A DNA stretch of 64,000 nt from Psammoneis japonica (taxonomy: Eukaryota). How positions within the stretch are numbered: position 1 is the first letter of the stretch; the number at the start of each line of letters is the position of its first letter. The position numbers and the translations under genes are program-made. The notes beneath the pieces are model-generated. The model did not search any database. It was not told the DNA's origin and worked only from the letters and a program-made list of their open reading frames with translations. The stretch is from assembly GCA_008632985.1 (NCBI GenBank), contig QPGO01000242.1, positions 1-64,000 of the forward strand, read 5' to 3'. Below, in pieces: positions 14,745 to 62,820 of the stretch.

Positions 14745-17130
14745 TTCTTGCTGGAGGATGATCTTAAAACTCCGGCGATCCAAACGGATCTTGCATCAGT
14801 CGATCAGGCTTTGATCAAACAACTTGCCATCCCAGAACAGGGTGCCAATGCTGACTTCCCTGAACTCCCTGACAACTTCATGGACGAATGGGACGATGCT
14901 GTTGAACCCATGGAACCCGACACTTCCAAACCAGAAGCTGATGAGTGCACCCCGGAGGGGCTTGACGAATGCCTCACAGTTCAAGTCATGTCACCACGTG
15001 GAGGTGAGCTGACCCATGCTGGGGTCATTGCACACAAACGGGATGGTGACGGGGTTCCTGTTGGCACCAGGAATGATGACAACCCTGTCCTGGACTCAAG
15101 GACACACGATGTGGAATTCCCTGATGGATCCACTGACTCCTGTGCTGCTGACGCAATTGCAGAAAATCTGTTCACTCAGATGGACTCTGAAGGCAATGCC
15201 TGCCAGATCATGAAGGAAACAGCTGATCACCGAAGTGATGCCCATGCCGCAAAGGCTGATGACAGGTGCACAACGACCAAGACTGGCAGGCGTGCTCCTG
15301 GGAGGATGACCGCAGGCTGGGACCTGCAAGTTGAATGGAAGGATGGGACTGCATCCTGGGTTCCCCTCAAGGATTTGAAGAAATCTGATCCAGTCGAGGT
15401 TGCTGAGCACGCTGCAGCAAACAAGGCAGCCAACAAACTGGCTTTTAACTGGTGGGTCCAAGACGTCTTGCATCACAGGTTGAGGATCTTAAAGAAAGTC
15501 AAGTCGCATCACTGGAAACGCACGCATGAGTTCAGAATTGAGCTCCCGAAATCTGTCAAGGAAGCTGTGGAGACAGATGACAGAATGGGGGCTGACTTCT
15601 GGTTCAAGGCTGTCAAGAAGGAAGTGTGAAACATCATGCCTGTGTTCAAGTTCCGCGATGACAACACTGTGCCGGTCGGGTGCAAACATGTTGATTGTCA
15701 TGTGATCTTTGACATCAAAAGCACCCTCCAATGTCAAGCAAGGTTCATGGCCAGAGACCATCAGACCAATCCACCCAAGGAATCGACCTGTTCCAGCGTG
15801 GTTTTGCATGATGGCGTTAGGATGGCATTCACCACAGCAGCTCTCAACGACCTGGAGGTCCTGAGTGCCGATGTTCAGAATGCCTGCTTGAACGCACACA
15901 CCAAGGAGAAGTGTTGTGCTGCTGCTGGCCTGGAATTTGGGAAGCACAATGAAGGAAGGCCGGCAATTGTTGTCCGAGCCTCACATGGTCTCAAATCTTC
16001 AGGTGCAAGATTTGGGGAGCCCATGGCTGCTGCTTTGCGCGATGCTGGATTCAAGTCTTGCAAGGCCAACCCAGACGTTTGGATGCAAGCTGCGGTTGAG
16101 CCGGATGGCTTCAAGCACTGGGAACACGCACTTGTTGACATGGACAAGTTGCTGTGTGCCTCACATGAACCTCAAAAGATCATGGATTGCATGAGCTCTG
16201 GATGCACACTCAAGGACGGAAGTGTCTGCAAGCCGGAGGAGCACTTGGGTGCCCAGATCAGAAAGTGCCAGCAGTCTGACTTGGACAGCAAGACACGCTG
16301 GGCCATGTCCTCTGACCTTTGTGTCAAACGGGCATTGGCTGATGTTGAGTTGGAGCTCAAGAAAACTGACAGGCATCTTCCGACAAAGGCGTCAACGCCC
16401 TTGAGCTCGGGACACAGGCCTGAACTGGACGGTTCGCCTGAGTTGAATGCCAAAACGGCCAACTGTCATCAAGGCTTTGTTGGTGTGCTCCGATGGTCAG
16501 TTGAACTGGGGCAAGTGGACATTTTTGTTGCTGTCTCACTCATGTCCTCCTGCTTGGCGGCACCGCGAGTTGGACGTGTTCCAGGTCCAGGTGGGACCTT
16601 GCACCACTGAACTGTGACATCGACAGTTTTTTGAATTGCGTCGCATGTCGCGCGCACAAATTTCTGCGTGATGTTGGCAAAATTTTGTGTGATTTTACAG
16701 TGCAATTGTCAGGCAATCCATTCAACAACTTTTTACATTTTTTCCTTCTGCACCATTCTCGAGTGTCTTGAGAATGGCGCAGGGCAGGCACGCTGTCCAA
16801 AACTTTGAGTGCAAACAGAGATGCATGCACTGCAAACTTGGCCGTTTGTTTTACGTCAAAGATGAATGTGTCCATTGAAAAGAGTGCTAACTGCAGAGCT
16901 CGCACGCAGAATTCTGCAGAGCAAATGTCACAAAAAGTCCCACCTGGGACTGGAACCCATCGTTGGACACCTGGACGAGGTGCTCCACATCTTCACGCAC
17001 TTGAAGGCCCGCTCTGAGTCTGCGCTGGTGTTTGACGACACTGAGCCCATCTTTGATGAGAGTCGTTTTACCAAGTGCAATTGGGAAGAACACTGTCCTG
17101 GTGTGGCTGAGCCGATGCTGCCAAACATGC
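14745..17130 (+). mobile_element. Ty1/Copia (diatom CoDi-like) pol relic: post-integrase region and reverse transcriptase
   Basis: VEFPDGS...IAENLF, GWDLQVEWKDG..SWVPLKDLK, CHVIFDIK, DVQNACLNA, HGLKSSGARF, GVLRWSVELG. Internal TGA stop at 15627; interrupted by a MITE. Confidence 0.93.
16573..16961. mobile_element. 389-bp MITE (family A) inserted in Copia RT, TSD GTTG
   Basis: Imperfect 25-bp TIRs gacgtgttccaggtccaggtgggac / gtcccacctgggactggaacccatc. GTTG at 16569-16572 and 16962-16965. Removal restores APRVGHLDEV. Confidence 0.9.
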
Positions 17131-17930
17131 AATCTGCTTTCTCCTTGCAAGCGTCAATCTTTCGGAACACTCTCTTTGTCTCTTCTGCACATCGCAGTTT
17201 GCAGTTGAGACCGCTGTTGGACGAAAACACGCCAAGATCCAGCAGCTGGTTTTTGTGGCTGTTTTTCAGTCTTCCAGCCTTCCATGCTTGCTTTTGCATG
17301 TCCAGCGAATTTCCAAGTCTTTCTCCATTTTCAATGTGACAATGGGGCACTTTGCAGCTTCCCTCGTGCACCACAAACTGTTTGAGAAGAGAAAACACAG
17401 TCTCCCAATGCTCAGCCAGAATGTCCCACTTGGCTCTGGCCTTCTTCAGTCATTCCTGTTGAGAAGTGTCAAGTTTCCTTTTCCTTGTGGCATCCCGTTG
17501 GTGGCTTGACCATTTTCCAAGGTTCTTCCCATCCTCGTTGTGCCCCCTTGGCATGTTTCTGTGTCCCTCCCGTTTCGTGAATTGCTTGAGAAGAGAGGGC
17601 ATTGTGCCCCATTGATTTTCCCACAAGAGCCGCTCAACACCAGCCTCCTCAAGTTTTTCTTCTTTTTCAATGTTGAGCTTGCCAAGCTTGTGTTTTGTGG
17701 CCATTGGTTGTCCAACCAAATTCCAAGAGCAAAGCCAGCCTCAGCACATTTGTTGGGAACATTGCATCTGCCTTCTCTCTCCAAGCAAACCAAGATCAGG
17801 CTGCAAGCACAACACGGTGCTAATCTCAGCAACACAGCATTGTGGAAATGTGCTCTTTGTGCCAGAGGCATGTGTTTGTGAACAACATGTTTCGCTGGCA
17901 GCACTGCCAACAGATTTTCTCTTTTTTCTT
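17131..17930 (-). pseudogene. Helicase-associated (HA) domain repeat protein relic
   Basis: QWGTMPSLLKQFTKREGHRNMP...LGKWSSHQR and HWETVFSLLKQFVVHEGSCKVP...LG repeats typical of HA domains; internal stops. Confidence 0.8.
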
Positions 17931-18322
17931 TTTTGCATGTTTGTTTTCCTTGAAACGACATGTTTGTTTTCCTTAAAATGACTTGTTTGTTTTCCTTGAA
18001 AGAACATGTTTGTTTTTCTTGAAAGAGCATGTTTGTTTTCCTTGAAAAGACACGCTTGTTTTCCTTGAAAAGACACACTTGTTTTCCTTGCAACAACTTC
18101 TTTGTTTTCCTTTTCCTTGAAACAACATGTTTGTTTTCCTTGAAACAACTTGTTTGTTTTCCTTGAAACAACATGTTTGTTTTCCTTGAAAAGACACGCT
18201 TGCTTTCCCTGAAAGAACATGTTTGTTTTCCCTGAAAGAACATGTTTGTTTTCCTTGAAAGAACATGTCTTGAAAGAACATCCTTGAAAAAACTTGTTTG
18301 TTTTCCCTGAAACAACATGTTT
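17930..18322 (-). repeat. 23-bp satellite array
   Basis: Tandem reverse-complement copies of TTTCAAGGAAAACAAACATGTCG. Confidence 0.95.
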
Positions 18323-18342
18323 GCGAATGAATGCTGACACAC

Positions 18343-21300
18343 TGTCACAAACACAGGCAGTTTGTGTGCCATTGGCAATTGGCAGTGGTCCCAGTGGTGT
18401 GACATCTCACAATTCCAGAACCTGTTGATGCTGTGCAACACTCCATCTTGTCTTGTGCCCAATTCTCAGCTGTCATGGTGGCATTTGTTCACTTTGTCAG
18501 AGCCAATGCACCATGATGTTCATTGCCTGGAATGGGCATCACAAACAGTGCAATGGCATTGTTGCAATTGACCGACTTTTGTGGCAAGCGCCATGCAGGT
18601 CCCATGGTTGCTCGCGCAATCGCTGAGTCCTTTGTGCGCATCAATGTTCATGGATGTGAATGACATGCTCTTGGAGACCAGAGCTGTGATCCGTTGGACA
18701 TGACATTGGTGGACGGAATGTTTGATCATGTGGATGGAATGTGTTGGCTAAGACATGTGAACATTTGTGACAAAGACAACATGATGATTCATGCGTTGAG
18801 GTCTGTCATTTGACCACATGCATTTGATTGATCAAAACACATTGTCAAACTGCTTGGACACTGCACATGTGGACACATGTCTGTTGGAAATTGTTGCTTG
18901 GGAGTGCCGCCGCCTGCTCACGGGTTTGCTGAGTGGAAACCGCCAAATTGGCATGAGAGCCACACATTTTCTCACTTTTCTCCACTCACACAAGTGGATG
19001 CTCACACGTCAAAACGCGAACAACTGCTGATGCACCATGGCCGCTGCCGCAACCTTTGCTGCTTGTCTGATGCATTGTGGATGCAATGCGCAGACGCGCA
19101 CCTGCATGGCCGGTCAAGGCTTTGCCACCACTCAGGACTTGGAACAGGTCCCTTTGGCAGAAATTGCTGCCATGACCAAGGGTGTCATGAAGAGCATGGA
19201 CACCGCCGCCAACCCTCAAGTCTGCTTCCCGTGCCCAGCGAATCGCAAGTTCAAGGCACTGTGTGCATGGATTGACTGCCGCAGGGTCCGGAATCAACAG
19301 CCAACTGCTGCTCTCTTTGCTGGCAATGTTGTTGGGACATGGACGGCGGGTCTCACAGAATTGGAACAATTTAAGTCAGCGGACTCAGACGATGAATCGG
19401 CTGCCAAGACGGCCATGGAACTCAAGAATCTGTGTGACTGGCCTGCCTTCCAAGAGTTGCTGGAGACTGAACTGTGCCACCACTGCAGTGCCGTCACTGG
19501 TGCACCCCTTGTCTGCCCAACCAGGGAGCATGAAGACGTCACTGCCGAAATGTTGGCTGCCACCTGCTCCACCATTGACAAAGACCTCATTGCTGCCACC
19601 CAACCAACAGGAGTGCAGCATGCACAGGATGGGCAATGCCTGCATGATCTTTTGAAGAAGCCAGTGATGGGGGAACCCGGATGGGCTTTTGCCAAACCTT
19701 CCAATCACAATCGCGATGGTCGCACTGCCTTCTTTGCACTTGAGAGGCAGGCGGAAGGATCGGCTGCCACCACCACCCACAAGAGCCGTGCCCATGCACA
19801 GATTGCTGCCGCAAAGCACGCCGGACAGGGTCGTTTTGCTTTTGACCAGTGCATTCAATGCCATCGTGAGGCTCACAACGACTTGTCCGAGCTGCTGTGC
19901 CCCAACCAACTGCAAGCAAATGGACCGACTGTCCATTGCATCCCTCGCCAGTTTGATCCCAACAGCACACACTCTGTTGTTTTCCCTGACTTGAAAATCA
20001 GGGTGCCTTTGTGCATGCAAGGTGTTGCTTTGGTCTTTGACTCACATGAGCCGACTCAGGAGGATCTGGAGAACCTCCCCAGCTGGAGCTCACACCACCC
20101 CTTGGATGGGAACCTTCTGCTGATGCCATGGTGCAAAAGGAGGAAGAGTGCGCATGTGCCAGTTTGCACCAAGGATCAGTGAAGTCTGACGGACAGTCGA
20201 CAATGATGAATGTGACCAGGTGTGTCACTTCAACTCATTTGTGTCAGACATCCCATCATGATGAGACGCCAATGGCAATGATTCTCTGCATCACTGCTTG
20301 GTTGCTCAGGCAAATGTCTCTCACAACGACATTGAGGGAGACGGGCCACATGACCGGCACAATCCAGACGTCCACCCGGATTGTGCTGAGCGGAAAAGGG
20401 TGCATGCACTGTCAACCTTGAGTCGTGCATCAACTGTCATGCCCAAGATGCTCTCCAAGAGGTGGAACATTGGCCTGATGGCCGCCAAGAACACCCTCAG
20501 AGTGACAACCCAGGCAGGGGTCCGCAACATCCACACGCCATCCAAATGGAAAGTCCAGAAGAAAGCCCCTTGGCTTGAGTTCCCTGCTGTCAAGGGATGC
20601 TTCCACTCAGACCAAATGTTTTTGAAGGTCAAATTGATGCATGGCAAGATGGGAGGAAGCATGTTTGCCAACGAAAGAGGGTGTGATGGGTTCCATCCTT
20701 GGAAGAGAGAGCAGGACCACCCAATGCCTTCATGTCATTCATGCATGACATTGGCGTGCTGCAAGTCCTTGTGTCGGATGGTGCACCAGAAATGGCAGAA
20801 GGCCAGACCAAGGACATTTGCAAGGAACACAGGATGCACCAGGAGGTGTCCACCCCATGCAGCCCCTGGCAGAACCTGGCCGAGGCATCCATTTGTGAGT
20901 TGAAGAAGAGAGTCCGCATGACTCTACGCCGGACTGGCGCTCACAGGCAACTTTGGTCCTGCAGTGCCAAATGGACATGCGACATCCAACGCATGATTGA
21001 GGCTGGCATTTTGGATGTGGGAGGATGAGTCCCAGAAGAAGAGGTGACAGGTTCAACACCTGACATCTCATCCCTCTCTCTCTCTTTGATTGGTGTCAAC
21101 CTGTTTGCTGTTGCACGCCTGTGGTGGAGTTCCCACACAAGAAGAAGTGCATTGGCCATTGGCTCGGAGCAGCTGACAACTGCACTGACGACATGGCATT
21201 TGTCATCCTGCCTGAATCAGGCAGACCCATCATTTGGAAAGATGTGTGGGCCATGCCAGAGGATGATCTTAAAACTCTGGCGATCCAAGCGGATCTTGCA

Positions 21301-22060
21301 TCAGTCAATCAGGCTTTGATCGAATGACTTGCCATCCCGGAACAGGGTGCCAATGCTGACTTCCCTGAACTCCCTGATGACTTCATGGACGAATGGGGCG
21401 ATGCTGTTGAACCCGTGGAACCCGATGCTCCCAAACCAGAAGCTGATGAGTGCACCCCGGAGGGGCTTGACGAATGCCTCACAGTTCAAGTCATGTTGCC
21501 ACGTGGAGGTGAGCTGACCCATGCTGGGGTCATTGCACACAAACGGGATGGTGATGGGGCTCCTGTTGGCACCAGGAATGACAACCCTGTCCTGCACTCA
21601 AGGACACACGACGTGGAATTCCCTGATGGATCCACTGACTCCTGTGCTGCCGGTGCAATTGCAGGAAATCCATTCACTCAGACAGACTCTGAAGGCAATG
21701 CCTGCCAGATCATGAAGGAAACAGTCGACCACCAAAGTGATGCCCGTGCCACAAAGGCTGATGACGGGTGCACAACGACTGAGACTGGCAGGCGTGCTCC
21801 TGGGAGGACGACCGCAGGCTGGGACCTGCAAGTTGAATGGAAGGGTGGGACCACATCCTGGGTTTCCCTCAAGGATTTGAAGGAATCTGATCCAGTCAAG
21901 GTTGCTGAGCATGCTGCAGCAAACAAGGCAGCCAGTGAACCAGCTTTTTTAACTGGTGGGTCCAAGACATCTTGCGTTGCAGGTCAAGGATCTTAAAGAA
22001 AGTCAAGTTGCATTGCTGGAGACGCATGCACAAGTTCGGAGCTGAGCTCCTGAAATCTGT
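18343..22060 (+). mobile_element. Copia relic: putative 5' LTR (~18343-18780), gag, internal deletion, integrase and downstream region
   Basis: tgtcacaaa at 18343 and tttgtgaca ending 18772. Gag-like ORF from 19037 (RDGRTAFFALERQAEG). Integrase motifs LSKRWNIGL, VLVSDGAPEM, TPCSPWQNLAEASI. LTR limits tentative. Confidence 0.85.
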
Positions 22061-22069
22061 CAAAGAACT

Positions 22070-22778
22070 GTTCATTCCTCCTTCTGAGGTTTCTCGTGGG
22101 TGCTGCGTCCAAACTGCATGCCTGTGTTGGCAGCAGGTGGCTCATCTGACTCTTTGGAGTCCTTTGTCCATCAGCAGGTTGAGGCTCAGCAACAGCCGCC
22201 CTTTTCACAGTGTGAGTGTCAGCGTCGACCAACTCAGCCTCCAAGGATGCCTCTGCTGCTTTGCATTTCTTCCCAGCTTTCTTGGCCTCATTGAGCTTCT
22301 CAACTTGCTCTTGCTCAGGACCATCAAGAGCACTCCACTCTTAAGTGGGGCAATGGCCTGCCTGGATCCTGGGCTTGTCCTTTTCAGGTTGGTGCTTGCC
22401 CTCAGAGTTTCTGCGACGGCTGTTGTGGCATTGGACGGATGCGGCCATGCGAGCATCAGCGTTGTGGTTCTTGGCATTCTCCACCAGAATCTTTGCATGC
22501 TGATGGCATGCTTTGAAATCTGCTGGCTTCATCGGATCTCCATCCACTGTGCTCTCACCAGTCTCCAACCCAGGGTCGGAGACACCCTCGATAAAGTCAG
22601 AGACCTTCTTGGTCTCAGCCACCGGCTCATCGAGCTCAGACAAGTCATTGCAAGCCTTCTGATGGCATTGGATGCACTGGTCAAAAGCAAAACAACTCCG
22701 GTGCACTTTGCGGTGGCAATCTGTGCATGGGCACGGTTCTTGTGGGTGGTGGCAGCAGCCGATCCTTCCGCCTGCCCA
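22070..22778 (-). mobile_element. Copia gag C-terminal fragment
   Basis: FDQCIQCHQKACNDLSELDEPVAETKKVSDFIEGVSDP; homologous to 29870-30566. Confidence 0.85.
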
Positions 22779-23290
22779 CATGTCTTTTCAAGCAAAACAA
22801 ACATGTCTTTTCAAGGAAAACAAACATGTCTTTTCAAGAAAAACAAGCGTGTCTTTTCAAGAAAAACAAACATGTCATTTCAAGGAAAACAAACAAGTCT
22901 TTTCAAGGAAAACAAACATGTCATTTCAAGGAAAACAAACATGTCGTTTCAAGGAAAACAAACATGTCTTTTCAAGGAAAACAAACATGTTGTTTCAAGG
23001 AAAACAAACATGTCGTTTCAAGGAGAACAAACATGTCTTTTAAAGGAAAACACACATGTCGTTTCAAGGAAAACAAACATGTCGTTTCAAGCAAAACAAA
23101 CATGTTGTTTTAACGAAAACAAACATGTGTTTTTAAGAAAAACAAACATGTCTTTTCAAGGAAAACAAACATGTTGTTTCAAGGAAAACAAATGTGTCGT
23201 TTCAAGGAAAACAAATGTGTTCTTTCAAGGAAAACAAACATGTCATTTCAAGGAAAACAAACATGTCGTTTCAAGGAAAACAAACATGCA
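22778..23290 (+). repeat. 23-bp satellite array
   Basis: Tandem TTTCAAGGAAAACAAACATGTCN. Confidence 0.95.
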
Positions 23291-24990
23291 AAAAAGAAAA
23301 AAGAGAACATCTGTTGACAGTGCTGCCAGCAAACCATGTTGTTCACAAATGCGTGCCTCTGGCACAAAGAGCACATTTCCACAATGCGGTGTTGCTGAGA
23401 TTAGAGCTGTGTTGTGCTTGCGGCCTGCTCTTCCCAACGAATGTGCTGAGGATGGCTTGGCTCTTGGAATTTGTTTGGACAACCAGCTGCCACAAGACTT
23501 GTTCCAGACTTGGGTGCACTCACGCGCGAAAAAATGACCCTTTTTGCATGAAACGCGCGGTCCACACTTGCTGCGCCATTTTCGACAGTAAAAACATGAC
23601 AATTTACAAATGCGCAGTTATGGGCACACACAGAATTGTCTTGTGCGTGCACCCAAGCATTCGAAACTGTTGGTGGACTCAGTTGTTGTCATTTGCCAAA
23701 TTGCGCCGTAAGTTGAGAGCTCGAATTTTCCGATGAGCGATTTGCACATGCCCGAATGCAACAAGAAACACATGAAATGTTGTTGACAAACACAAATTGA
23801 GTCTTTAACATGGCACAATTGATGTTTTGTTTTCACACGCGAGTGCGAGTTACACTCAACGGATCGAACAAAGCATTCGTTGATCAATGAGTTTAGGACA
23901 ACGTGAGAAGAAGTGCAGCTCAGCCCACGCAATGGCGTCACCTTCGGACCAATTTTCATGGTTTAAAAGGCACAAACGATTGACACACTTGAACCAGTCA
24001 AACACATTGAGGAAACACACATGGCAACAGAAAAGAGATGGTCCTTGGAGGCAAATTGTGAGTGAACAGAGGCTCAATTGTTGTTGCTGACAGATTTGGC
24101 ATCATTGTGCCACGCTGCAGCCTTCAACAAGCATTTTCACTGTTGTTGTTGATGACACAGACTATGTCAAATACGGAGATCCGGGTCAAGACATTCAATT
24201 TTCCACAAGGCTGAAAAAAGTGGGCCATCATGGTCACTGAAAGTCATGGCCGGTTTGGCTGTTTGTTTGTTCGAGTTCATTCTGCTCATTTTACTTCTGA
24301 GCCATTGATGTGATCAATTTTATCAAATGTGCAAACGGTGTTCAACAAAGCATTAAAAAATTATTTTTTCTGCAAAAAGGGGCATGTGCGCGCCACCCAA
24401 GTCTGGAACAAGTCACAAAACACAAGCTCAGCAAGCTCAACATTGAAAAAGAAGAAAAACTTGAGGAGGCTGGTGCCAAGCGGCAGTTGTGGGAAAATCA
24501 ATGGGGCACAATGCCCTCTCTTCTCAAGCAATTCATGAAATGGGAGGGACATTGCAACATGCCAAGGGGCCACAACGAGGATGGGGAGAACCTTGGAAAA
24601 TGGTCAAGTGACCAATGGGATGCCACAAGGAAAAGGAAACTTGATGCTTCTCAACAGGAATGACTGAAGAAGGCCAGAGCCAAATGGGACATTCTGGCTG
24701 AGCATTGGGAGACTGTGTTTTCTCTTCTCAAACAGTTTGTGGTGCATGGGGGGAAGCTGCAAAGTGCCCCATCATCACACTGAAAATGGAGAGAGACTTG
24801 GACATTGGCTGGATGCGCAAAAGCAAGCATGGAAGGCTGGAAGACTGAAGAACAGCCGCACAAACTGGCTGCTGGATCTTGGCAAGTTTTCATCCAACAG
24901 CAGTCTCCGCTGCAAACTGCGATGTGCAGAAGCGGAAGAGACAAAGAGAGTGCTCCAAAAGATTGACGCTTGCAAGGAGAAAGCAGACTC
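23290..24990 (+). pseudogene. HA-domain repeat protein relic interrupted by a MITE
   Basis: Same HA repeats as 17131-17930 and 31010-31780. Confidence 0.8.
23496..24414. mobile_element. 919-bp non-autonomous DNA transposon (family B), perfect 21-bp TIRs, TSD ACAA
   Basis: gacttgttccagacttgggtg at 23496-23516 and its reverse complement at 24394-24414. ACAA on both sides. Empty site present in paralogs near 17700 and 31210. Confidence 0.93.
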
Positions 24991-35615: not shown

Positions 35616-35629
35616 GCACATCAGCATTT

Positions 35630-41540: not shown

Positions 41541-41558
41541 TGCTGTGAAAAGATCAAG

Positions 41559-43340: not shown

Positions 43341-43342
43341 TG

Positions 43343-53850: not shown

Positions 53851-53865
53851 AGGAAAACAAACATG

Positions 53866-54680
53866 GCAGAGGTGCTGGCGGGAACTTTGGGAAGAGCACA
53901 ACAAGTTGGTTCACGGGCACGATGTTGATTCTTGGAAATCATCTCAACAGAGGAAGGCGGAAGCCAAACTGACGGCGACATGCAACAAATGACAAGAATG
54001 CTTGGCGAAGGACAGAGGCGCATTGCTGGATTTGGTCAAAGAACAACTGTCATTTTCAACAACGAGGATCCAAAGCTGGATCTCTGTGGTCCGTCCAAGA
54101 CCAAAACACAGCCTGAAAGAAGCCAAACGACTGGCAAAAAGCGGCGCTTGCGCCATTTGCAGCTGTCTCCGTCGGGCGCCCTCCAATGGGGGCGCCAAAA
54201 CCGGCCAACTGCACCACATTTCTGCCGCATCCTCTGCAGGGTGCGCTGGAAGTGTGGGTTGGCCGGCGCCGGTGTTGCTGGGCAAAGGTGCAATGGCACT
54301 TGAAATTGGGGTTTGGTTTTTTTTTGGTCTCAAGCCTTGCGGGCCACACAAGATGAGCCAACTTGTGTTTCAGCTGCGCCCACATTTGACAATGTGACCC
54401 GCGCTGCTCTCTGTTCAGCGGCGAGCAACTGTTTGGTGAGAAAGGTCTAGCCAGGGAGAACACAGGTCATCAAGGAGAGATGACGTGCACGGCAGCATCT
54501 CCATGGTTCCACATGATCATGTCAACAAGATCAAAGGAAAAGAGCTGTTGCTCTTGTGTCAGAGTTTCTTCAACTGAGTCCTCTGGGTGCCAACTGGAGC
54601 CAAGCATTGTCTGAGGGTTTTGTGCGGAGCACAAGCTGAGAGTTGAGTGCCAGAGCGGGGCTTGAGCCTGTCTGCAAGTT
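53866..54680. mobile_element. Further non-LTR fragments: C-terminus/3' end (+, to ~54325) and RT piece (-)
   Basis: CWRELWEEHNKLVHGHDV matches 50761-50850 in opposite orientation; 54330-54680 matches 25500-25840. Confidence 0.8.
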
Positions 54681-54724
54681 TTGGCGGCGCTGCTCCATGC
54701 CTGCTTTTGCTTGGTTTGAGGTGG

Positions 54725-54965
54725 GGTGTTTGTTTTCCTTGAAAAGACACGTTTGTTTTCCTTGAAATGACACGCTTGTTTTCCCTGAAACGACGTGTTT
54801 GTTTTCTTTGAAATGACACGTTTGTTTTCCTTGAAAAGACATGTTTGTTTTCCTTGAAAACACATGTTTGTTTTCCTTGAAACAACATGTTTGTTTTCCT
54901 TGAAAAGACATTTTTTCCCCTTGAAACGACATGTTTGTTTTCCTTGAAAAGACGTGTTTGTTTTC
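54725..54965 (-). repeat. 23-bp satellite array
   Basis: Tandem units. Confidence 0.93.
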
Positions 54966-57900
54966 ACCAATCAAAGAGAGAGAGGGAAGAGATGTCGGGT
55001 GTTGAACCTGTCACCTCCTCTTCTGGGACTCATCCTCCCATGTCTGACACACTGGCTGCAATCATGCGTCGGATGTCAAATGTCCATTTGGCGCTGTGGG
55101 ACCAAAGTCGTCTGTGAGCGCCAGTCCAGTGCAGAGTCACACGGACTCTTTTCTTCAACTCACGAATGGATGCCTCGGCCAGGTTCTGCCAGGGGCTGCA
55201 TGGAGTGGACACCTCCTGGTGCATCCTGCACTCCTTGCAGATCTCCTTGGTCTGGCCGTCTGCCATTTCCAGTGCGCCATCTGACACAAGGACCTGCGGT
55301 GTGCCAACGTCATGCACAAATGACATGACGGCATCTGGGTGGTCCTGTTTCCTCTTCCAAGGATGGAGCCTGTCACACCCTCTTCCGTTGGCAAGTGCGC
55401 TTCCTCCCATCTTTCCATGTGTCGATTTGACCTTTGAAAACATCTGGTCGGAGCAGAGTTGTCCCTTGACAGCAGGGAACTTGAGCCAAGGGGCTTTCTT
55501 CCGGACTTTCCGTTTGGATGGTGTGCAGACATTGCGGACCCCTGCCTGGGTCATCACTCTGATGGTGTTCTCAGCAGCCGTCAGGCCAATGTCCCACCTT
55601 TTAGAGAGTGTCTCGGGTGTGACAGTTGATGCACAACTCAAGGTCGACAGCGCATGCACCCGTTTCCGATCGGCACAATCCAGGTGGACATCCAGGTCAT
55701 GCCGGTCATGTGGCCCATCTCCCTCGGTGTCGTTGTGGGAGACACTCACCTGAGCAACCATGCGGCGATGCAATGAATTGTTGTCATCAGTGTCCACAAT
55801 GACGCTCTTGTCATGACAGGACATTTGGTGTGAATGAATGGAAGCAACACACCTGGCCACATTCATTGTCGTCGACCATCCGCCCGACTTTGCTGGTCCT
55901 TGGCGCACACTGGCACATGCACGCACTTCCTCCTTTTGCGCCATGGCATCAGCAGAAGGCTCCCATCTCGGGGGTGATGTGAGTTCCAGCCAGGGGAGGT
56001 TCTCCAGATCCTCATTTGTTGGCTCGTGTGAATCAAAGAGAGAAGCAACGCCTCTTGTTCGCAGCGGCACCCTGATCTTCAAGTCAGGGAAAGCAATGGA
56101 GTGCGCGCCAGTCGGATCAAACTGGCAAGGGGTGTCGTGGACAATCAGCCCATTTGCTCACAGTTGGTTGGGGCACAGAAGGGTGTTGGTCATCGTGTCC
56201 CAAAAAAACATGGCCTCGTGGACTGGCAGCAAGCGCGGTTGTCCATCAGTTGGATCAACCCACACGGCAGCAGCCGTGCAAACAGGAGTGTTTTCCATTG
56301 GCGCGTGCTCTTCGGAGTGGGGGTGCACCACGGCAGTTCTGGCAATGTCAGAGCACATCACAAAATTGGACCCAACAGCACATGTGTCAGCGTGCGAGTC
56401 TAAATCAGTGGTGGCTTCATCATCTGAATTTCCAGCAGATGACAGAGAGACACGCACTTCCTTTGAGAATCACCCAGACAAACAAACAGTGCCAGCAGGT
56501 TTAGCGACATTCGGCTCTGTGCCTTTCAGTGCTGGCGCAACTGTTCGCTCCTCATTCTGACGTTTCTCATGTGCGCTGCATCCAAACTGGGTGCCTGCAT
56601 TGGCGGCAGGTTCGCCAGGCTCGTCGGAGTCTTTCGGCACATCAGCAGGTTGAGCAGCAGGCTCGGCAACAGCCGCTTTCTTTGCAGCGCGAGTTTTGGC
56701 ATCGACCGACTCAGCTTCCAAGGACACAGCAGCAGCTTTGCATTTCTTTTTGGCCCAATTGGCGTCGCGGAGCTTTTGGACTTGCTCTCACTCGGGACCA
56801 TCAAGAGCACTCCGGTCGGAGATGCCCTTCAGAAAGTCAGAGACCTTCTTGGTCTCGGCCACCAGTTCATCAAGCTCAGACAAGTCGTTGTGAGCCTTTT
56901 GACGACGCTGAATGTGCTGGTCAAATGCAAATCAACCCCATCCGGTGCACTTCGCGGCAGCAATCTGTGCATGAGCACAGCTCTTTTGGGTGGTGGCGGC
57001 AGCTGATCCTTCCGCCTGCCTCTCAAGTGCAAAGAAAGCAGTGCGACCATCGCGGCTGCGATTGGAAGGTTTGACAAAAGCCCACCCGGGCCCCCCCATC
57101 ACTGACTTCTTCAGGAGATCATGCAGTCGTTGCCTGTCCTGTGCATGCTGAGCGCCCGCAAGGTGGGTGGCAGCAATGAGGTCCTCGTCAATGGCAGCGC
57201 AGGTGGCAGCCAAAACTCTGGACAGATGAGGGGAACTCCGGCGACGGTGCTGCGGTGGCGGCGCAGTTCGGTCTCCAGCAACTCTTGGAAGGTGGGCCAG
57301 TTGTGTGGGTTCTTGAGCTCCACAGCCGTTTTGGCAGCCAATTCGTCGTCCGAGTCGGTGGACTTGAATTGCTCCAGTTCCATCAGACGTGCCGCCCATG
57401 TTCCAACAACATCGCCAGCGAAGAGAGCAGCGGTCGGCTGTTGGCTCCGGGCTCTGCGGCAGTCAATCCATGCACGCAGTGCCTTGAGCTTTCGATTTGC
57501 CAGGTGTGGAAAGCGGGCTTGAGGGCTGGCAGCGGCACCCACGCTTTTCATGGTGCCCTTCGTCGTGTCGGCAATTTCAGTCAAAGGGACCTGCTCCAGG
57601 TCCCAAACAGCAGTGAAGCCTTGACGGGCCATGTGGGTGCGCGTCTGTGCACTGTGCCCACAACGCGCAAGACAGGCAGCAATGGCTGCAGCAGCAGCCA
57701 TGGTGCATCAGCAGTTGTTTGCATTTCGATGCGCGAGCATCCGCTTGTGTGAGTGGAGGAAAGTGAGAAAAATGCATGGCTCTCGTGCCGATTTGGCAGT
57801 TTCTGCTTGGCAAACCCATGAGCAGGCGGCGTTGCCCCCAAGCGACAATGTCCAACAGACATGCATCCACGTGTGCAGCATCCAAACAATTTGATGATGC

Positions 57901-58169
57901 ACTTTGATTGATGAGATGTGTGCGGTCAAATGACAGACAGTGCACAAATCATTGTGTTGTCTTCATCACGAATGTTTGCGTGTCTCAGCCAACATGTTCC
58001 ATCCACATGATCAAACATTTCGTGTGATGACGTCATGTCTGACGGATCACAGCTCTGGTCTCCAAGAGCATGTTGTTCATGTCCATGAATGTTGCACACA
58101 CAAAGGACTCAGCAATTGCGCGAGCAACCATGGGACCAACATGGCGCTTGCCACAAAAATCAATTGATC
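54966..58169 (-). mobile_element. Copia relic: 5' region, gag, protease, integrase (most contiguous copy)
   Basis: Gag from 57701; DLDSHADTCAVGSNF protease; LSKRWDIGL...SDQMFS...LVSDGALEM...TPCSPWQNLAEASIRELKKR integrase. Domain order fits Copia. Confidence 0.92.
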
Positions 58170-58957
58170 NNNNNNNNNNNNNNNNNNNNNNNNNNNNNNN
58201 NNNNNNNNNNNNNNNNNNNNNNNNNNNNNNNNNNNNNNNNNNNNNNNNNNNNNNNNNNNNNNNNNNNNNNNNNNNNNNNNNNNNNNNNNNNNNNNNNNNN
58301 NNNNNNNNNNNNNNNNNNNNNNNNNNNNNNNNNNNNNNNNNNNNNNNNNNNNNNNNNNNNNNNNNNNNNNNNNNNNNNNNNNNNNNNNNNNNNNNNNNNN
58401 NNNNNNNNNNNNNNNNNNNNNNNNNNNNNNNNNNNNNNNNNNNNNNNNNNNNNNNNNNNNNNNNNNNNNNNNNNNNNNNNNNNNNNNNNNNNNNNNNNNN
58501 NNNNNNNNNNNNNNNNNNNNNNNNNNNNNNNNNNNNNNNNNNNNNNNNNNNNNNNNNNNNNNNNNNNNNNNNNNNNNNNNNNNNNNNNNNNNNNNNNNNN
58601 NNNNNNNNNNNNNNNNNNNNNNNNNNNNNNNNNNNNNNNNNNNNNNNNNNNNNNNNNNNNNNNNNNNNNNNNNNNNNNNNNNNNNNNNNNNNNNNNNNNN
58701 NNNNNNNNNNNNNNNNNNNNNNNNNNNNNNNNNNNNNNNNNNNNNNNNNNNNNNNNNNNNNNNNNNNNNNNNNNNNNNNNNNNNNNNNNNNNNNNNNNNN
58801 NNNNNNNNNNNNNNNNNNNNNNNNNNNNNNNNNNNNNNNNNNNNNNNNNNNNNNNNNNNNNNNNNNNNNNNNNNNNNNNNNNNNNNNNNNNNNNNNNNNN
58901 NNNNNNNNNNNNNNNNNNNNNNNNNNNNNNNNNNNNNNNNNNNNNNNNNNNNNNNNN
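58170..58957. other. Assembly gap
   Basis: Run of N. Confidence 1.
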
Positions 58958-61460
58958 CTTGAAAACACACATTTGTTTTCCTTGAAACAACATGATTGTT
59001 TTCCTTGAAATGGCGTGTTTGTTTTCTTTGAAACGACGTGTTTGTTTTCCTTGAAACGACATGTTTGTTTTCCTTGAAAAGACATGTTTGTTTTCCTTGA
59101 AACCACATGTTTGTTTTCCTTAAAATGGCGCGTTTGTTTTCTTTGAAACGACATGTTTGTTTTCATTAAAAAGACATGTTTGTTTTCTTTGAAACGAAAT
59201 GTTTGTTTTCCTTGAAAAGACATGTTTGTTTTCCTTGAAAAGACATGTTTGTTTTCTTTGAAACGACATGTTTGTTTTCCTTGAAACGACATGTTTGTTT
59301 TGGTTGAAAAGACATGTTTGATTTCCTTGAAACAACATGTTTGTTTTCCTTGAAAAGACACATTTGTTTTCCTTGAAACAACATGTTTGTTTTCCTTGAA
59401 ACGACATGTTTGTTTTCCTTGAAACCACATGTTTGTTTTCCTTGAAATGACACGTTTGTTTTCCTTGAAATGACACGCTTGTTTTCATTAAAAAGACATG
59501 TTTGTTTTCTTTGAAACGAAATGTTTGTTTTCCTTGAAAAGACATGTTTGTTTTCCTTGAAAAGACATGTTTGTTTTCTTTGAAACCACATGTTTTTTTT
59601 CCTTGAAACGACATGTTTGTTTTCATTGAAAAGACATGTTTGATTTCCTTGAAACGACATGTTTGTTTTCCTTGAAACGACATGTTTGTGTTCCTTGAAA
59701 AGACACATTTGTTTTCCTTGAAACAACATGTTTGTTTTCCTTGAAACGACATGTTTGTTTTCCTTGAAAAGACACATTTGTTTTCCTTGAAACAACATGT
59801 TTGTTTTCCTTGAAATGGCATGTTTGTTTTCCTTGAAATGACATTGTTCCAGGCGATGAACATCACAGCGCACTGGCTCTGACAAAGCGACCAAATGCCA
59901 CCATGATGGCTGAGAATTGGGTGCAAGACAAGATGGAGTGTTGAGCAGCATCAGCAGGTTCTAGAATTGTGAGATGTTGCGCCATTGGGGCCGCTGATCA
60001 AGCAACAGTGAACCAATCGCCAACAGCACACAAACTGCCTGTGTTTGTGACAGCACATCAGCATTTGTTCAAAACGACATGTTTGTTTTCCTTGAAACAA
60101 CATGTTTGTTTTCAATGAAAAGACACGCTTGTTTTCCTTGAAAAGACACATTTGTTTTCCTTGAAATGACATGTTTGTTTTCCTTGAAACGACATGTTTG
60201 TTTTCCTTGAAAAGACATGTTTGTTTTCAAAACATGTTTGGTTTCCTTGAAACCACACGTTTGTTTTCCTTGAAAACACATGTTTGTTTTCATTGAAAAG
60301 ACGTGTTTGATTTCCTTGAAACGACAAGTTTGTTTTCCTTGAAATGACACGTTTGTTTTCCTTGAAACGACATGTTTGTTTTCATTAAAAAGACATGTTT
60401 GTTTTCTTTGAAACGAAATGTTTGTTTTCCTTGAAAAGACATGTTTGTTTTCCTTGAAAAGACATGTTTGTTTTCTTTGAAACCACATGTTTTTTTTCCT
60501 TGAAACGACATGTTTGTTTTCATTGAAAAGACATGTTTGATTTCCTTGAAACGACATGTTTGTTTTCCTTGAAACGACATGTTTGTGTTCCTTGAAAAGA
60601 CACATTTGTTTTCCGTGAAACAACATGTTTGTTTTCCTTGAAACGACATGTTTGTTTTCCGTGAAAAGACACATTTGTTTTCCTTGAAACAACATGTTTG
60701 TTTTCCTTGAAATGGCACGTTTGTTTTCCTTGAAATGACATGTTTGTTTTCAAGAAACAACGTGTTTGTTTTCCTCGAAACAACATGTTTGTTTTCCTTG
60801 AAAAGACATGTTTGTTTTCCTTGAAACATGCATTTTCAAGGAAAACAAATGTGTTGTTTCAAGGAAAACAAACACGTCTTTTCAAGGAAAACAAACATGT
60901 TGTTTCAAGGAAAACAAACACGTGGTTTCAAAAAAAACAAACATGTCTTTTCAAGGAGCGAGAATGGCGTAGAAGAAAAAAATGTCAAAAGTTGATCAAT
61001 GCATGGCCTGACAATTGCGCTGTAAAATCACACAAAATTTTGCCACAGTCACGCAGAAATGTGCGCGCGCGACACACGACGCGATTCAAAAAACTGTGGA
61101 TGTCACAGTTCAGCAGTGCGAGGTCCCACCTGGACCTGGAACGCATCTGTCGTTTCAAGGAAAACAAATGTGTGTTTTCAAGGAAAACAAACATGTCGTT
61201 TCAAGGAAAACAAACACGCCATTTCAAGGAAAACAAACATGTTGTTTCAAGGAAAACAAGTTTGTCTTTTCAAGGAAAACAAACATGTCGTTTCAAGGAA
61301 AACAAGCACATTGTTTCAAGGAAAACAAATGTGTCTTTTCAAGGAAAACAAACATGTCGTTTCAAGGAAAACAAACATGTCTTTTTCAATGAAAACAAGC
61401 GTGTCTTTTCAATGAAAACAAACATGTCGTTTCAAGGAAAACAAACATGTGGTTTCAAAG
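58958..61460. repeat. 23-bp satellite arrays with an LTR fragment (59845-60070), orientation switch at ~60825 and truncated family A MITE (60958-61148)
   Basis: Tandem units on minus then plus strand; inserts match 35410-35630 and 38879-39068. Confidence 0.92.
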
Positions 61461-62820
61461 AGCGCCGGACTGGCGCTCACAGACGACTTTGGTCCCACAG
61501 TGCCAAATGGACATGTGACATCCGACGCATGATTGCGACCAGTGTGTCAGACGTGGGAGGACGAGTCCCAGAAGAGGAGGTGACAGGTTCAACACCCGAC
61601 ATCTCTTCCCTCTCTCTCTTTGATTGGCGTCAACCTGTGCATTGCTGCGTGCCTGTGGTGGAGTTCCCACATGAAAAGGAGCGCGTTGGCCGTTGGCTTG
61701 GCGCAGCTGACAACTGCGCTGACGAAATGGCATTCATTGTTTTGCCCGAATCAGGCAAACCCATCATTCAGAAGGATGTGTGGGCCATGCCGGAGGAAAA
61801 CCTTAAAACTCCTGTGATCCAGACGGATCTTGCATCGGTCGATCAAGCTTTGATCGCCAGTGCTGACTTCCCTGAACTCCCTGACGACTTCATGGACGAA
61901 CAGGACGACGCCATTAAACCTGTGGAACCCGACGCTTCCAAACCGGAAGCTGATGAGCACACCCTGGAAGGGCTGGATGAATGTCTCACAGCTCAAGTCA
62001 TGTCACCACGAGGAGGTGAGCTGACTCATGCTGGGGTCATTGCACACAAGTGAGATGGTGACGGGGTTCCTGTTGGCACTGGGAACGACTTGAGGACATG
62101 CGACGTGGAATTCCCTGACGGATCCACCGACTCCCATGCTGCTGACACAATTGCAGAGAACCCATTCACTCAGATCGACTCTGAAGGGAATGCCCGCCAG
62201 ATCATGAAGGAAACAGTCGATCACTGACGTGATGCCCATTGCAGTGTGCATGCAGACAAAAGGTTGTTTTTGTCATGACCTTTGTGACATTTAAATTGCA
62301 GCACGTCGCCGTGATGCATTGGCTCTTGTCAGCAGCTGCACACTGCACTCCTCCCCATGTGTCACGCGTCCATGCGGCTCTTTGCTGACGTGCACTGACA
62401 CTGCACGGTTTTGGTGGAACAGTGTGGGTGCGTGCGAAGGAACACACAGAACTGCACAGAGTTTTGCACGTTCGACAGTGATCAACGTTGCTGCAGACAA
62501 CTCCCACTCAGGGTTTCGAACCCCTGGCCTCCTGCCCAATGGTTGCGATGAACCACTCCGCCAAAAATTCATGATGCAGCATGCATGCAGACAAAAGGTT
62601 GTTTTGTCACAACCTTTGTGACATTTAAATTGCAGCACGTTGCTGTGATGCATCAACTCTCATTGGCAGCTGCACATTGCACCGTGCTGCAACGGCCAAT
62701 GACGGGTGCACAACGACCAAGACTGGCAGGCATGCTCATGGGAGGACGACTGAAGGCTGGGACCTGCAAGCAGAGTGGAAGGATGGGACTGCATCCTGGG
62801 TTCCTCTCAAGGATTTGAAG
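61461..62820 (+). mobile_element. Copia integrase C-terminal region interrupted by a TRIM
   Basis: GRVPEEEVTGSTPDIS...GRWLGAADNCADEMAF...GWDLQAEWKDGTASWVPLKDLK. Confidence 0.9.
62240..62681 (-). mobile_element. 442-bp TRIM (miniature LTR retrotransposon)
   Basis: Two ~108-bp TG...CA direct repeats (62240-62347, 62575-62681); PPT GGGGAGGAG (62356-62348); TSD CCAT/CCGT; empty site at ~15240 and ~21745. Confidence 0.88.

Follow-up and report, generated by a model that had tools for sequence, protein, structure and literature searches.

Probable TpA-directed transition hypermutation of repeat-rich DNA flanking a gene island in an apparently diatom-related genome

In a 64-kb stretch of genomic DNA, hereafter the window, we uncovered retrotransposon fragments, satellite arrays and a single-copy flank that are almost devoid of the dinucleotide TpA. 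We regard it as highly probable that the repeat-rich genomic DNA flanking a gene island has here undergone a dinucleotide-specific transition hypermutation, as judged from the end states preserved in this one 64-kb window. In the proposed process, TpA would be converted, nearly to saturation, either to TpG (by an A to G change on one strand) or to CpA (through the same change on the opposite strand, seen here as T to C), and the decay of CpG to TpG or CpA would act in the same domain. Both processes start from a self-complementary dinucleotide and end in the same pair of products, so that copies hit independently should come to differ as TG versus CA; within a reading frame, a codon that once specified Tyr (TAY) or Arg (CGY) would then read Cys in one copy and His in another.

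The TpA-poor domains and their contents

Between positions 11,849 and 64,000, TpA was observed 151 times against 3,590 expected (ratio 0.042), a 24-fold shortage, and TG and CA both reach a rho of about 1.67. The pattern holds without exception in 2-kb windows from 12 to 64 kb (TA rho 0.01-0.12; TG/CA rho 1.3-1.9), and CG is likewise scarce there (rho 0.3-0.8 versus about 0.9-1.0 in the gene island; values of 0.52-0.73 were obtained for the domain at 11,849-64,000). This right-hand domain continues past the end of the window and comprises copia fragments along with other repeats, arrays of a 23-bp satellite and a flank at single-copy depth. A left-hand domain at 1-1613, which runs off the window start and in which a 243-bp tandem repeat spans 1019-1577, is similarly poor in TpA (over positions 1-1500, five TA against 100 expected, rho 0.05). 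Between the two lies a gene island of ordinary composition (1,614-11,848; TA rho 0.595) with Pfam matches, including an ORF with a PDZ domain (2087-3796) and Prp19 (9414-11189), whose closest named relatives are all diatoms.

Within this single 64-kb window the edges of the island could be placed to within 400-630 bases. On the left, scattered TAs at 29, 183, 814, 934 and 985 give way to dense ones from 1,614. On the right, dense TAs end at 11,848; the one that follows, at 12,245, is the only TA in a CpG-poor flank of single-copy depth (11,849-12,814). The TpA loss is confined to a domain with sharp edges, and these do not coincide with the ends of elements. GC content is mostly 0.45-0.55 in the domain and shows no drop outside the satellite. 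The residual TAs have a skewed context, with 29 of 122 lying in TTAA and seven of 122 in ATAN. Since TpA-free DNA lacks TAA and TAG, long spurious ORFs arise in all six frames; indeed, frames are open in all six phases and 97 ORFs of at least 150 aa are found in the window.

The recognizable coding remains of the right-hand domain are of the Ty1/copia LTR retrotransposon type, with homology over the gag, integrase and RT regions to full-length polyproteins bearing RVT_2. Homology searches and tblastn identify the plus-strand segment 14733-17193 as the C-terminal part of the integrase, RT and the RNase H region, with ADE[C] at 14946 and STDS[C] at 15141. Its 625-aa read-through has 9,849 matches, the top one being a 1,359-aa polyprotein at 1e-180; it is free of Tyr (0%) and rich in Cys (3.4%) and His (4.5%), whereas its relatives have 3.2-4.3% Tyr, about 1.3% Cys and about 2.4% His. 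Relatives contain PF07727; the window copy itself scores under the Pfam cut-off (18.6 vs 31.6 bits), as expected after hypermutation. Outgroup tblastn places a second plus-strand fragment, from gag to integrase, at 19892-22071 (LWS[C] at 20960, ADE[C] at 21451, STDS[C] at 21643). The sequence preceding it, at about 18342-19893 (+), carries the AQTRT, FP[C] and NDLSEL sites, has no outgroup match upstream of about 19,811 and is probably an LTR or 5′ leader; in self-alignment it recurs at 35616-34769, 38173-37586 and 58161-56873.

On the minus strand, outgroup tblastn locates copia gag and other N-terminal fragments at 27527-27931 and 28842-29763, and an RNase H-region piece (28521-28805) lies within the same 27527-29763 stretch. 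A further minus-strand C-terminal (RNase H region) fragment occupies 34258-34768, and a gag N-terminal fragment at 40834-41232 (-) has a twin at 45464-45871 inside a 98.4% identical duplicate. The N-terminal half of a polyprotein at 54967-56424 (-), with LWS[H] at 55098, has outgroup residues 2-330 mapping to 56,424-55,414; upstream of it, this copy has an LTR- or leader-like stretch at 56425-58167 (-; AQTRT at 57630, FP[H] at 57504, NDLSEL at 56872). Finally, an integrase-region fragment at 61463-62255 (+) carries LWS[H] at 61496, ADE[H] at 61958 and STDS[H] at 62135. The 23-bp satellite, 11,385 bases in total, has a TA rho of 0.022 and forms about 18 arrays, of which the largest is at 35627-37585 and others are, for example, at 22778-23288, 49344-50387, 58958-60827 and 62821-64000.

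Those relatives of the copia elements that have a name belong to two diatoms, Fragilaria crotonensis and Nitzschia inconspicua, along with an identifier from Cyclotella cryptica, and on the strength of these and the Prp19 homologies the host looks like a diatom. Ordinary Tyr content was seen in 387 of the 391 relatives retrieved and ordinary TpA (rho 0.62-0.86) in three metagenome copia loci. Tyr-free, Cys/His-rich copia fragments are also present in Logan and JGI/IMG.

Ancestral state of the Cys/His alternatives

The initial annotation had reported six motif pairs in which one copy has Cys and another His, and all six were recovered within a few bases of where it had placed them: ADECTPE (14937, 21442) and ADEHTLE (61949); STDSCAA (15129, 21631) and STDSHAA (62123); LWSCSAKW (20951) and LWSHSAKW (61487, and 55084 on the minus strand); GCNAQTRTCM (19079) and GHSAQTRTHM (57630 and additionally 34837, both minus); EAHNDLSEL (19868) and KAHNDLSEL (56872, minus) as against KACNDLSEL (30422 and 22632, both minus); and FPC (19226) and FPH (57504, minus). 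In each case the codons are TGC or TGT versus CAC or CAT, so that a single dinucleotide reads TG in one copy and CA in the other. Across 70 self-alignments (34,806 columns) no double difference is more frequent than this one, which accounts for 533 columns against 95 for the runner-up class, an excess far above chance, and an orientation-safe recount yields 249 homologous columns with both TG and CA. The label of gag given to the AQTRT, NDLSEL and FP sites proved wrong, as these lie upstream of the polyprotein N-terminus, which on the minus strand maps to about 56,424. They lie in spurious open frames of stop-poor DNA and hence record differences between TG and CA in the DNA rather than sites in a protein. 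Three of the six pairs thus fall outside the polyprotein, which leaves the other three for polarization.

For these three sites, where outgroup polyproteins align, the claim of a TA (Tyr) ancestor holds, with Tyr or another aromatic residue being typical. Among 40 relatives at 48-56% identity, Tyr is found in 32 at LWS[C/H] and in 23 at ADE[C/H]; at STDS[C/H] the closer relatives have Phe in 19, Val in 11 and Tyr in two of 40, a point against the Tyr reading at this site, and more distant ones have Tyr in 15-16 of 29-33. Arg (CGY), the outgroup state named beforehand as counting against this ancestry, is not among the commonest residues at any of the three.

Taking all copies together with the same 40 relatives, none of the 54 Tyr-consensus codons still reads TAY and 47 have become TGY or CAY (CAC 18, CAT 4, TGC 13, TGT 12; i.e., 25 Cys and 22 His). 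Control residues are largely retained (Phe 46/53, Trp 46/48, Asp 97/127, His 22/28), and the loss of Tyr was reproduced with two other sets of 28 and 41 relatives. The same preference crosses codon boundaries: of 179 retained A-first codons none follows a T and 107 follow a C, and a T precedes 43 of the 60 first-base A-to-G replacements. The alignments with relatives show the direction of change to be from Tyr to Cys or His and, between codons, from T-A to T-G, both being substitutions of TpG or CpA for TpA.

CG, which the initial annotation named as the other possible ancestor, is the source of many TG/CA columns: of 19 TG/CA codon columns, Tyr is the plurality residue in eight and Arg in five, and among 179 multi-copy TG/CA columns a CG copy persists in 47 and a TA copy in only two.

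Strand outcomes and competing explanations

Strand-coordinated runs of TG or CA, which the initial annotation suggested would mark a processive enzyme, were absent from the four copies and eight pairs tested (runs tests, z from -0.32 to +1.75), the two outcomes being randomly mixed. The agent would plausibly be an enzymatic activity targeted to chromatin or repeats, with an ADAT2-like DNA adenine deaminase, as proposed for the chlorarachniophyte Bigelowiella natans, as one candidate and the oxidation of thymine at TpA, with ensuing mispairing with G, as another; its effect would be the irreversible inactivation of mobile DNA.

The alternative that survives best is that the TpA loss is a passive by-product rather than a targeted defence, with base modification or repair bias in heterochromatin slowly eroding TpA in silent chromatin, for example through thymine oxidation at TpA or biased repair of T:G mismatches. 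Such erosion would sit well with the depletion of all sequence classes in the domain, including the single-copy flank, with the co-occurrence of CpG decay, which marks DNA that is silent and methylated, with the want of strand processivity and with the context-dependent survival in TTAA and ATAN noted above. Against it, the B. natans process is described as being on in only some lines, at 1000-fold the background, and looks regulated (10.64898/2026.01.13.699255). We consider a passive origin rather unlikely. The data from the window itself fit both a by-product and a targeted defence.

A dedicated TpA-erasing, chromatin-targeted DNA-editing defence, present in diatoms or this lineage, homologous to the B. 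natans process and ancient in the SAR supergroup, is a possibility to which we give somewhat less than even weight. As part of the same reading, it would act on mobile and satellite DNA and spread to neighboring single-copy sequence, and would be the converse of fungal RIP, taking stop codons away where RIP makes them.

CpG decay is clearly discernible from outgroup polarity and CpG depletion, with methylation at most a presumed cause. Of 113 Arg-consensus codons 59 are kept, with the others including CAA (10), CAT (6), CAC (5) and TGA (6), the products at Arg being His, Gln, Cys or stop, and C precedes 49 of the 66 first-base G-to-A replacements. In rooted triples, apparent changes from TpG or CpA to CpG (62) nearly equal CpG losses (76), which may reflect parallel decay in the outgroup copy. 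The Arg and G-to-A figures, together with the low CG rho of the domain, the CG copies in 47 of 179 columns and the preponderance of CpG sites among the differences between young duplicates (17 of 28), could be taken to mean that methylated CG gave rise to all TG/CA pairs, with Arg CGY turning into either Cys TGY or His CAY, and that the TpA shortage is a separate matter. However, the fate of the Tyr codons, the Tyr or aromatic residues rather than Arg at the named sites in relatives and the codon-boundary preference for A-to-G after T refute CpG decay as the sole cause, and it could not have removed 96% of TpA. This alternative is accordingly very improbable; CpG decay runs alongside as a second process, not the main one.

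The history of the copies bears on whether DNA or RNA was changed. In pairs of about 80% identity, three Tyr sites are discordant and four concordant; at 91-93% identity one is discordant and nine concordant; and duplicates of 98.4-99.8% identity have nearly all outcomes in common. We infer that the older, about 80% identical copies were hit independently after they separated, and that those at 91-99% are later segmental duplications which inherited their outcomes, with subsequent differences mainly at CpG. As the about 80% identical copies differ at about half of their Tyr sites, the hits would have followed integration. Hyperediting of RNA from A to I by an ADAR-like enzyme, or deamination of single-stranded cDNA, followed by fixation through reverse transcription and integration, might be favored by the fact that the affected coding sequences are retroelements, by the fact that, on the sense strand, Arg codons have given slightly more CA than TG outcomes, and by the 5′ U preference of ADARs (10.64898/2026.01.13.699255). 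Yet not only is such post-integration timing at odds with it, but the strand outcomes are near-equal in each copy (25 Cys and 22 His overall) and free of runs, satellite arrays and the single-copy flank are equally TpA-free, and the domain edges do not match element ends. The strand-coordinated, retroelement-limited clusters expected of ADAR- or APOBEC-type editing with retrotransposition are not what is found, and we consider such an origin extremely doubtful. The earlier claim that genomic DNA rather than RNA or cDNA was mutated is thus supported, because satellites and single-copy flank are affected too.

A sequencing or assembly artefact, in which a modified base at TpA in heterochromatin was miscalled as TG or CA, is hardly credible: strand-conflicting miscalls could yield a random TG or CA per site, and the confirming runs, whose platform is unrecorded, derive from a single sample, possibly the very source of the assembly, but two contigs of run X1 match 10500-12254 and 12246-12814, 2.3 kb over the boundary, with zero other letters and unbroken at former TpA sites (word depth in the flank 61-66, the same as in the gene), the 98.4-99.8% identical duplicates agree on nearly all outcomes, similar Tyr-free copia fragments occur in Logan and JGI/IMG, and the B. 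natans mutations of the same signature came from Illumina reads (10.64898/2026.01.13.699255).

Known hypermutation systems and wider implications

The closest parallel is in B. natans, where integrated viral DNA undergoes TpA-specific hypermutation, only to TpG and CpA, and de novo mutations with this signature have been measured (10.64898/2026.01.13.699255). Both cases combine TpA depletion with enrichment of CpA and TpG and are confined to particular regions of foreign or mobile origin; in B. natans the TpA-depleted coding sequences are enriched for reverse transcriptase and DDE endonuclease (10.64898/2026.01.13.699255). They differ in host, B. natans being a chlorarachniophyte (a rhizarian) whereas the present genome groups with diatoms, to which the consulted text makes no reference; in targets, two integrated viruses there and copia retrotransposons, a 23-bp satellite and single-copy flank here; and in degree, with a rho of 0.45 in the B. 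natans NCLDV region against a near-saturated 0.04 here (10.64898/2026.01.13.699255). Further, CpG decay accompanies the TpA loss here, and our evidence consists of end states where that from B. natans is a measured rate.

Ascomycete RIP is comparable in being an irreversible transition hypermutation of repeats with a dinucleotide preference, which acts at the DNA level on both strands and destroys transposon frames; in Neurospora it also leaks into adjoining single-copy sequence. However, RIP changes C to T mainly at CpA, making TpA, AT-rich DNA and many stops, whereas here TpA is destroyed, GC goes slightly up and TAA and TAG stops vanish. We rejected fungal RIP as the cause, with TpA depleted 24-fold, not enriched, and GC not lowered outside the satellite. 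The decay of 5-methylcytosine at CpG likewise turns a self-complementary dinucleotide into TpG or CpA on either strand, and Arg into Cys, His, Gln, Trp or stop, but does not account for the loss of TpA or for Tyr becoming Cys or His. In animals, APOBEC3 (changing G to A) and ADAR (changing A to G) hypermutate retroviruses and retrotransposons and also leave clustered, deaminase-type transitions in retroelement copies; these enzymes, however, act on single-stranded cDNA or double-stranded RNA in strand-coordinated clusters, unlike the strand-random changes seen here, which include DNA other than retroelements.

On the practical side, hypermutated elements fall under Pfam thresholds, so that both repeat and gene annotation will be wrong unless the signature is recognized. 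Ages estimated from the divergence of these transposon copies are too high; of the 241 mismatched bases in one pair with 79% identity, 151 fall at TG/CA and CpG sites. If the defence reading is true, the survivor contexts (TTAA kept, ATA/TAT lost) would report the extended motif of the enzyme, TAY. Diatoms play a dominant ecological role, and several of them are amenable to genetic work. TpA-directed A:T to G:C hypermutation has so far been described only once, in one chlorarachniophyte (2026 preprint, 10.64898/2026.01.13.699255). That it should be saturated across more than 52 kb of retrotransposon and satellite DNA, here in a genome grouping with the diatoms, suggests that the process is not a one-species curiosity and that its natural targets may include ordinary transposons and heterochromatin.

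TpA depletion and the contents of the domain

The sites that bear a cysteine in some copies and a histidine in others are a symptom of a much bigger phenomenon seen in the dinucleotide statistics. Between 11,851 and 64,000 TpA occurs 151 times against 3,590 expected (ratio 0.042), and in the smaller depleted stretch on the left (1-1,500) 5 times against 100 (0.05); the intervening gene island (1,601-11,800) has 425 of 714 expected (0.595). In the domain, i.e., the TpA-free stretch 11,849-64,000, TG and CA are each about 1.67-fold enriched and the observed/expected ratio (rho) of CpG is lowered to 0.3-0.8. Both edges of the gene island are sharp: on the right, dense TAs stop at 11,848 and there is no other before 12,245; on the left, none lies between those at 985 and 1,614. 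A frame at 11633-12073 (-), with weak matches to P-loop NTPase or helicase N-terminal domains (PhoH, 2e-5, below the cut-off), spans the right edge, its matching part retaining TAs and its upstream part being TpA-free. At the left edge, within the left TpA-free stretch, lies a 243-bp tandem repeat (1019-1577; 2.3 copies, 88% matches).

The loss of TAA and TAG leaves all six frames of the domain open: the stops left in 11800-64000, in all frames, are TGA only. The window has 97 ORFs of at least 150 aa, and beyond 11.8 kb there are 187 stop-free frames of at least 110 aa, which overlap on both strands and are for the most part spurious. A total of 32,816 residues from stop-free frames includes 19 tyrosines, 1,710 cysteines and 1,502 histidines. 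A Pfam scan of 150 of the 170 listed open frames, those ahead of 55,118, gave almost no match in the domain; gene predictors would report false proteins across 11800-64000. The TAs that survive outside the satellite differ in context from those of the gene island: TTAA is over-represented (29/122 vs 25/425), and ATAN (7/122 vs 106/425) and NTAT (10/122 vs 122/425) are scarce. These counts suggest that TAY (equivalently RTA) may be lost faster than TAA, a lead rather than a result because part of the surviving TAs may be new, having arisen from ordinary C-to-T changes.

Several repeat classes make up the domain. A 23-bp satellite makes up 11.4 kb in some 18 arrays, which are interleaved with transposon fragments in both orientations (17936-18323, 22778-23288, 26057-26347, 27964-28306, 30567-31010, 32899-33222, 35635-37585, 38192-38875, 39069-39266, 40276-40800, 43370-43919, 44906-45430, 49344-50387, 54727-54965, 58958-60827, 61148-61458 and 62821-64000); both N gaps (47523-48119 and 58170-58957) adjoin satellite repeats. 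Matches to the helicase-associated domain HA (PF03457; E 4e-9 to 2e-6) at 16931-17449 (-), 24301-24660 (+), 24668-25609 (+) and 31464-32156 (+) fall within a repeated unit (24414-27037, ~31211-33915 and, inverted, ~17133-17934) that may belong to a mobile element or else represent a captured family of host genes. Inverted repeats of ~470 bp, 76% identical (50389-50855 and 53858-54325), enclose ~3.9 kb including a 545-aa frame (52304-53938, -) without a match in Pfam; the element (50389-54325) may be a DNA transposon, and depletion is slightly weaker in it, with 500-bp windows of up to 0.17.

The copies with the polyprotein sites are Ty1/copia-type retrotransposons: a 625-aa read-through of 14,733-16,607 (one TGA taken as X) retrieved 9,849 relatives, the best being a 1,359-aa polyprotein (1e-180), and the closer ones, at no more than 56% identity, bear the Pfam RVT_2 domain. 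The named relatives are from diatoms (Fragilaria crotonensis, Nitzschia inconspicua and a Cyclotella cryptica identifier), as are all the named best matches of the Prp19 protein of the gene island (at most 49% identity); on this basis the host is probably itself a diatom or near kin, rather than Bigelowiella natans. These searches found no relative of the family above 57% identity, and no intact master copy was seen. The polyprotein N-terminus maps to ~56,424 (-) and, in other fragments, to 29,760, 41,232 and 27,847. The copy at 18-22 kb is without ~690 bp between its upstream region and gag (junction 19892/19893 vs 56181-56873), and has thus lost the first 80-130 polyprotein residues; the piece is kept at 56182-56872, as also at 22066-22777 and 29851-30566.

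Direction of change in the copia elements

The relatives have 3.2-4.3% Tyr, ~1.3% Cys, 2.4% His and 7% Arg, and the window copy 0%, 3.4%, 4.5% and 4.8%, respectively. We polarized these differences with 40 relatives of 48-56% identity, placed by tblastn on all copia fragments, and two further outgroup sets agree with the result. At the 54 codons where at least 70% of the 40 relatives have Tyr, TAY is never found in the window (0/54); instead there are CAC (18), CAT (4), TGC (13), TGT (12) and other codons (7). Control residues are retained: Phe at 46/53, Trp at 46/48, Asp at 97/127 and His at 22/28. Arg is retained at 59/113 codons, with CAA (10), CAT (6), CAC (5) and TGA (6) among the replacements, the mark of CpG decay. 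At the Arg-consensus CGN codons, CA outcomes on the sense strand exceed TG outcomes (the TGAs and few TGY), much as with another of the outgroup sets; this could reflect a strand asymmetry or the tendency of tblastn to avoid stop codons. Codon boundaries offer an independent line of evidence: retained residues whose codons begin with A are preceded by T in 0/179 cases and by C in 107/179, first-base A-to-G changes follow a T in 43/60 and first-base G-to-A changes follow a C in 49/66. Thus, the codon tallies and codon-boundary counts show two dinucleotide-specific processes, namely TpA to TpG/CpA and CpG to TpG/CpA. Rooted triples of window copies leave the direction at CpG unsettled, with 76 CpG losses and 62 apparent gains from TpG/CpA, the latter likely being parallel decay in the outgroup copy. 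GC-biased gene conversion was set aside: it has no dinucleotide specificity, yet A-to-G follows T in 43 of the 60 cases. The idea that the family was short of TpA and Tyr from the outset was rejected, the relatives being normal in both and the copies disagreeing with each other at Tyr sites.

The motif pairs reported in the initial annotation were all recovered within a few bases of the positions it gave, and the Cys/His alternation is in each case TGC/TGT vs CAC/CAT, i.e., TG vs CA at one dinucleotide. Across 70 non-satellite self-alignments (34,806 columns) TG/CA is the top double difference, with 533 columns against 95 for the runner-up class, and 249 homologous columns contain both (an orientation-safe count, used in place of a union-find grouping that mixes orientations at inverted self-matches and gives similar numbers). 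In the closer set of 40 relatives, the ADE[C/H] site has Tyr in 23, Phe in 10 and His in 3, and the LWS[C/H] site Tyr in 32 and Phe in 6; in the more distant set, Tyr is found in 8 of 27-29 and 9-13 of 29-35, respectively. STDS[C/H] has Phe (19), Val (11), Ile (4), Leu (2) and Tyr (2) in the closer set and Tyr in 15-16 of 29-33 in the more distant one; by single transitions, TGT and CAT are both reachable from TAT alone. Arg (CGY), whose presence in outgroups the initial annotation took as evidence against its reading, is absent from the commonest residues at these three sites, and its objection accordingly does not apply to them.

More broadly, 19 codon columns have TG in one copy and CA in another over the first two codon positions; the most frequent outgroup residue is Tyr for 8 of these columns, Arg for 5 and something else for 6. 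A CG copy persists in 3 of the 5 Arg-plurality columns, and a CGC copy in one Tyr column. In the multi-copy TG/CA columns of the whole repeat set, a CG copy is present in 47/179 and a TA copy in 2/179; TA ancestors go unseen at the DNA level because TpA is nearly exhausted. TA and CG have both given rise to such columns. The initial annotation is confirmed in what it observed and supported in how it read this, with two corrections: TA is not the exclusive ancestor; and the AQTRT, FP and NDLSEL sites, labelled ‘gag’, fall ahead of the coding part, within sequence resembling an LTR or leader, as judged from the mapped polyprotein N-terminus at ~56,424 (-), the open frames over them being artefacts of stop-poor DNA. 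Two Tyr-consensus codons, at 61628 (CGT) and 45763 (-) (CGC), have CGY in one copy and TGY or CAY in its sisters. Reaching CGY takes a further A-to-G or T-to-C change, made at CpA or TpG, which hints that the activity is not strictly limited to TpA; the apparent CpG gains in the rooted triples are changes of this type too.

Genomic DNA as the target and the timing of the changes

The proposal that genomic DNA, and not RNA or cDNA, was mutated is borne out by several observations. The outcomes at Tyr codons are near balance (25 Cys vs 22 His), and strand-coordinated runs, raised in the initial annotation, did not emerge: the number of runs, in both the Cys/His order along copies and the TG/CA orientation order in eight copy pairs, was at chance level (z -0.32 to +1.75). 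The 23-bp satellite is itself TpA-poor (rho 0.022), as is the flank at 11,849-12,814, which has a single TA. In X1, one of the sequencing runs, this flank has the word depth of the adjacent gene (61-66) and contigs identical to it, and the repeats past it have depths of 300-6,800; the process therefore reached single-copy DNA adjoining the repeats. Contigs of run X2 cover 10,500-11,244 only, and none of run X3 matched. The base calls are confirmed weakly, since the runs share a single sample, possibly the very source of the assembly; strand-conflicting miscalls at former TpA sites would be an alternative origin of the pattern, but the contigs pass these sites without breaks.

Comparisons between copies bear on the timing. 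In copy pairs that are ~80% identical, 3 Tyr sites are discordant and 4 concordant, near the half expected for independent hits; in pairs of 91-93% identity the counts are 1 and 9; and duplicates of 95-99.8% identity have hardly any TG/CA differences, mostly differing at CpG. The last include a direct duplication of 2.07 kb (40827-42892 and 45457-47522; 98.4% identity), where CpG accounts for 17/28 differences, and its third, inverted copy at 48121-49014 (-) (~95.6%), again with mostly CpG differences. We infer that the family was first inserted, that each copy then underwent near-saturating TpA loss and that local segmental duplications followed, with CpG decay acting throughout. In a pair of 79% identity, TG/CA (45 columns, contributing 90 bases) together with single CpG differences (61) account for 151/241 mismatched bases, and sequence divergence thus greatly overstates age.

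Related cases and mechanism

Among 391 retrieved copia relatives, 4 are Tyr-free and rich in Cys and His, and they form two clusters, which could be from the same species. P0061/P0390, from a Logan run assembly, have His at 6, Cys at 6 and Tyr at 0 of 16 Tyr-consensus positions; P0136 and P0391, from JGI/IMG contigs, have, at 10 such positions, 2 Cys and 4 His, and 1 Cys and 5 His, respectively. By contrast, the protein P0060 has Arg replaced by Cys (5), Gln (3) and His (1) and retains Tyr at 6/7 positions, a profile of pure CpG decay. A metagenome scan with P0136 found no relative; one with the reverse transcriptase of the window found three distant copia loci with normal TpA (rho 0.62-0.86), which serve as a composition baseline only.

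A full-text literature search for the signature gave a single match, the bioRxiv preprint of Mettrop et al. on mutation-accumulation lines of Bigelowiella natans (10.64898/2026.01.13.699255). There, 231/302 nuclear point mutations fell in integrated giant-virus and virophage regions, nearly all being A to G or T to C and all at TpA, at a rate of ~6e-7 per site per generation in some lines only; TpA-depleted coding sequences were enriched in reverse transcriptases and DDE endonucleases, and the authors proposed that an adenine deaminase resembling ADAT2 is responsible (10.64898/2026.01.13.699255). That preprint makes no mention of diatoms, and our searches found no paper joining TpA, CpA, TpG and diatom, other searching returning fungal RIP papers only. 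RIP is a functional analogue that runs in the opposite direction: it creates TpA and stop codons, whereas the process in the window removes both. The window case therefore belongs with the very recently described B. natans-type TpA hypermutation; it differs in coming from another major lineage and in affecting ordinary retrotransposons and a satellite, to saturation and along with CpG decay.

Thus, the data show a TpA-specific transition process that acted on genomic DNA in a bounded domain, on each strand independently, in addition to CpG decay. Less probably, the TpA loss is a passive by-product of heterochromatin modification. The more probable agent is a targeted enzymatic activity, which would act at TpA by adenine deamination or thymine oxidation, the latter option drawing on the chemistry of 5hmU and base J. 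Such a targeted activity would be directed by the repeat or chromatin state, and its outcome would be the disabling of mobile DNA.
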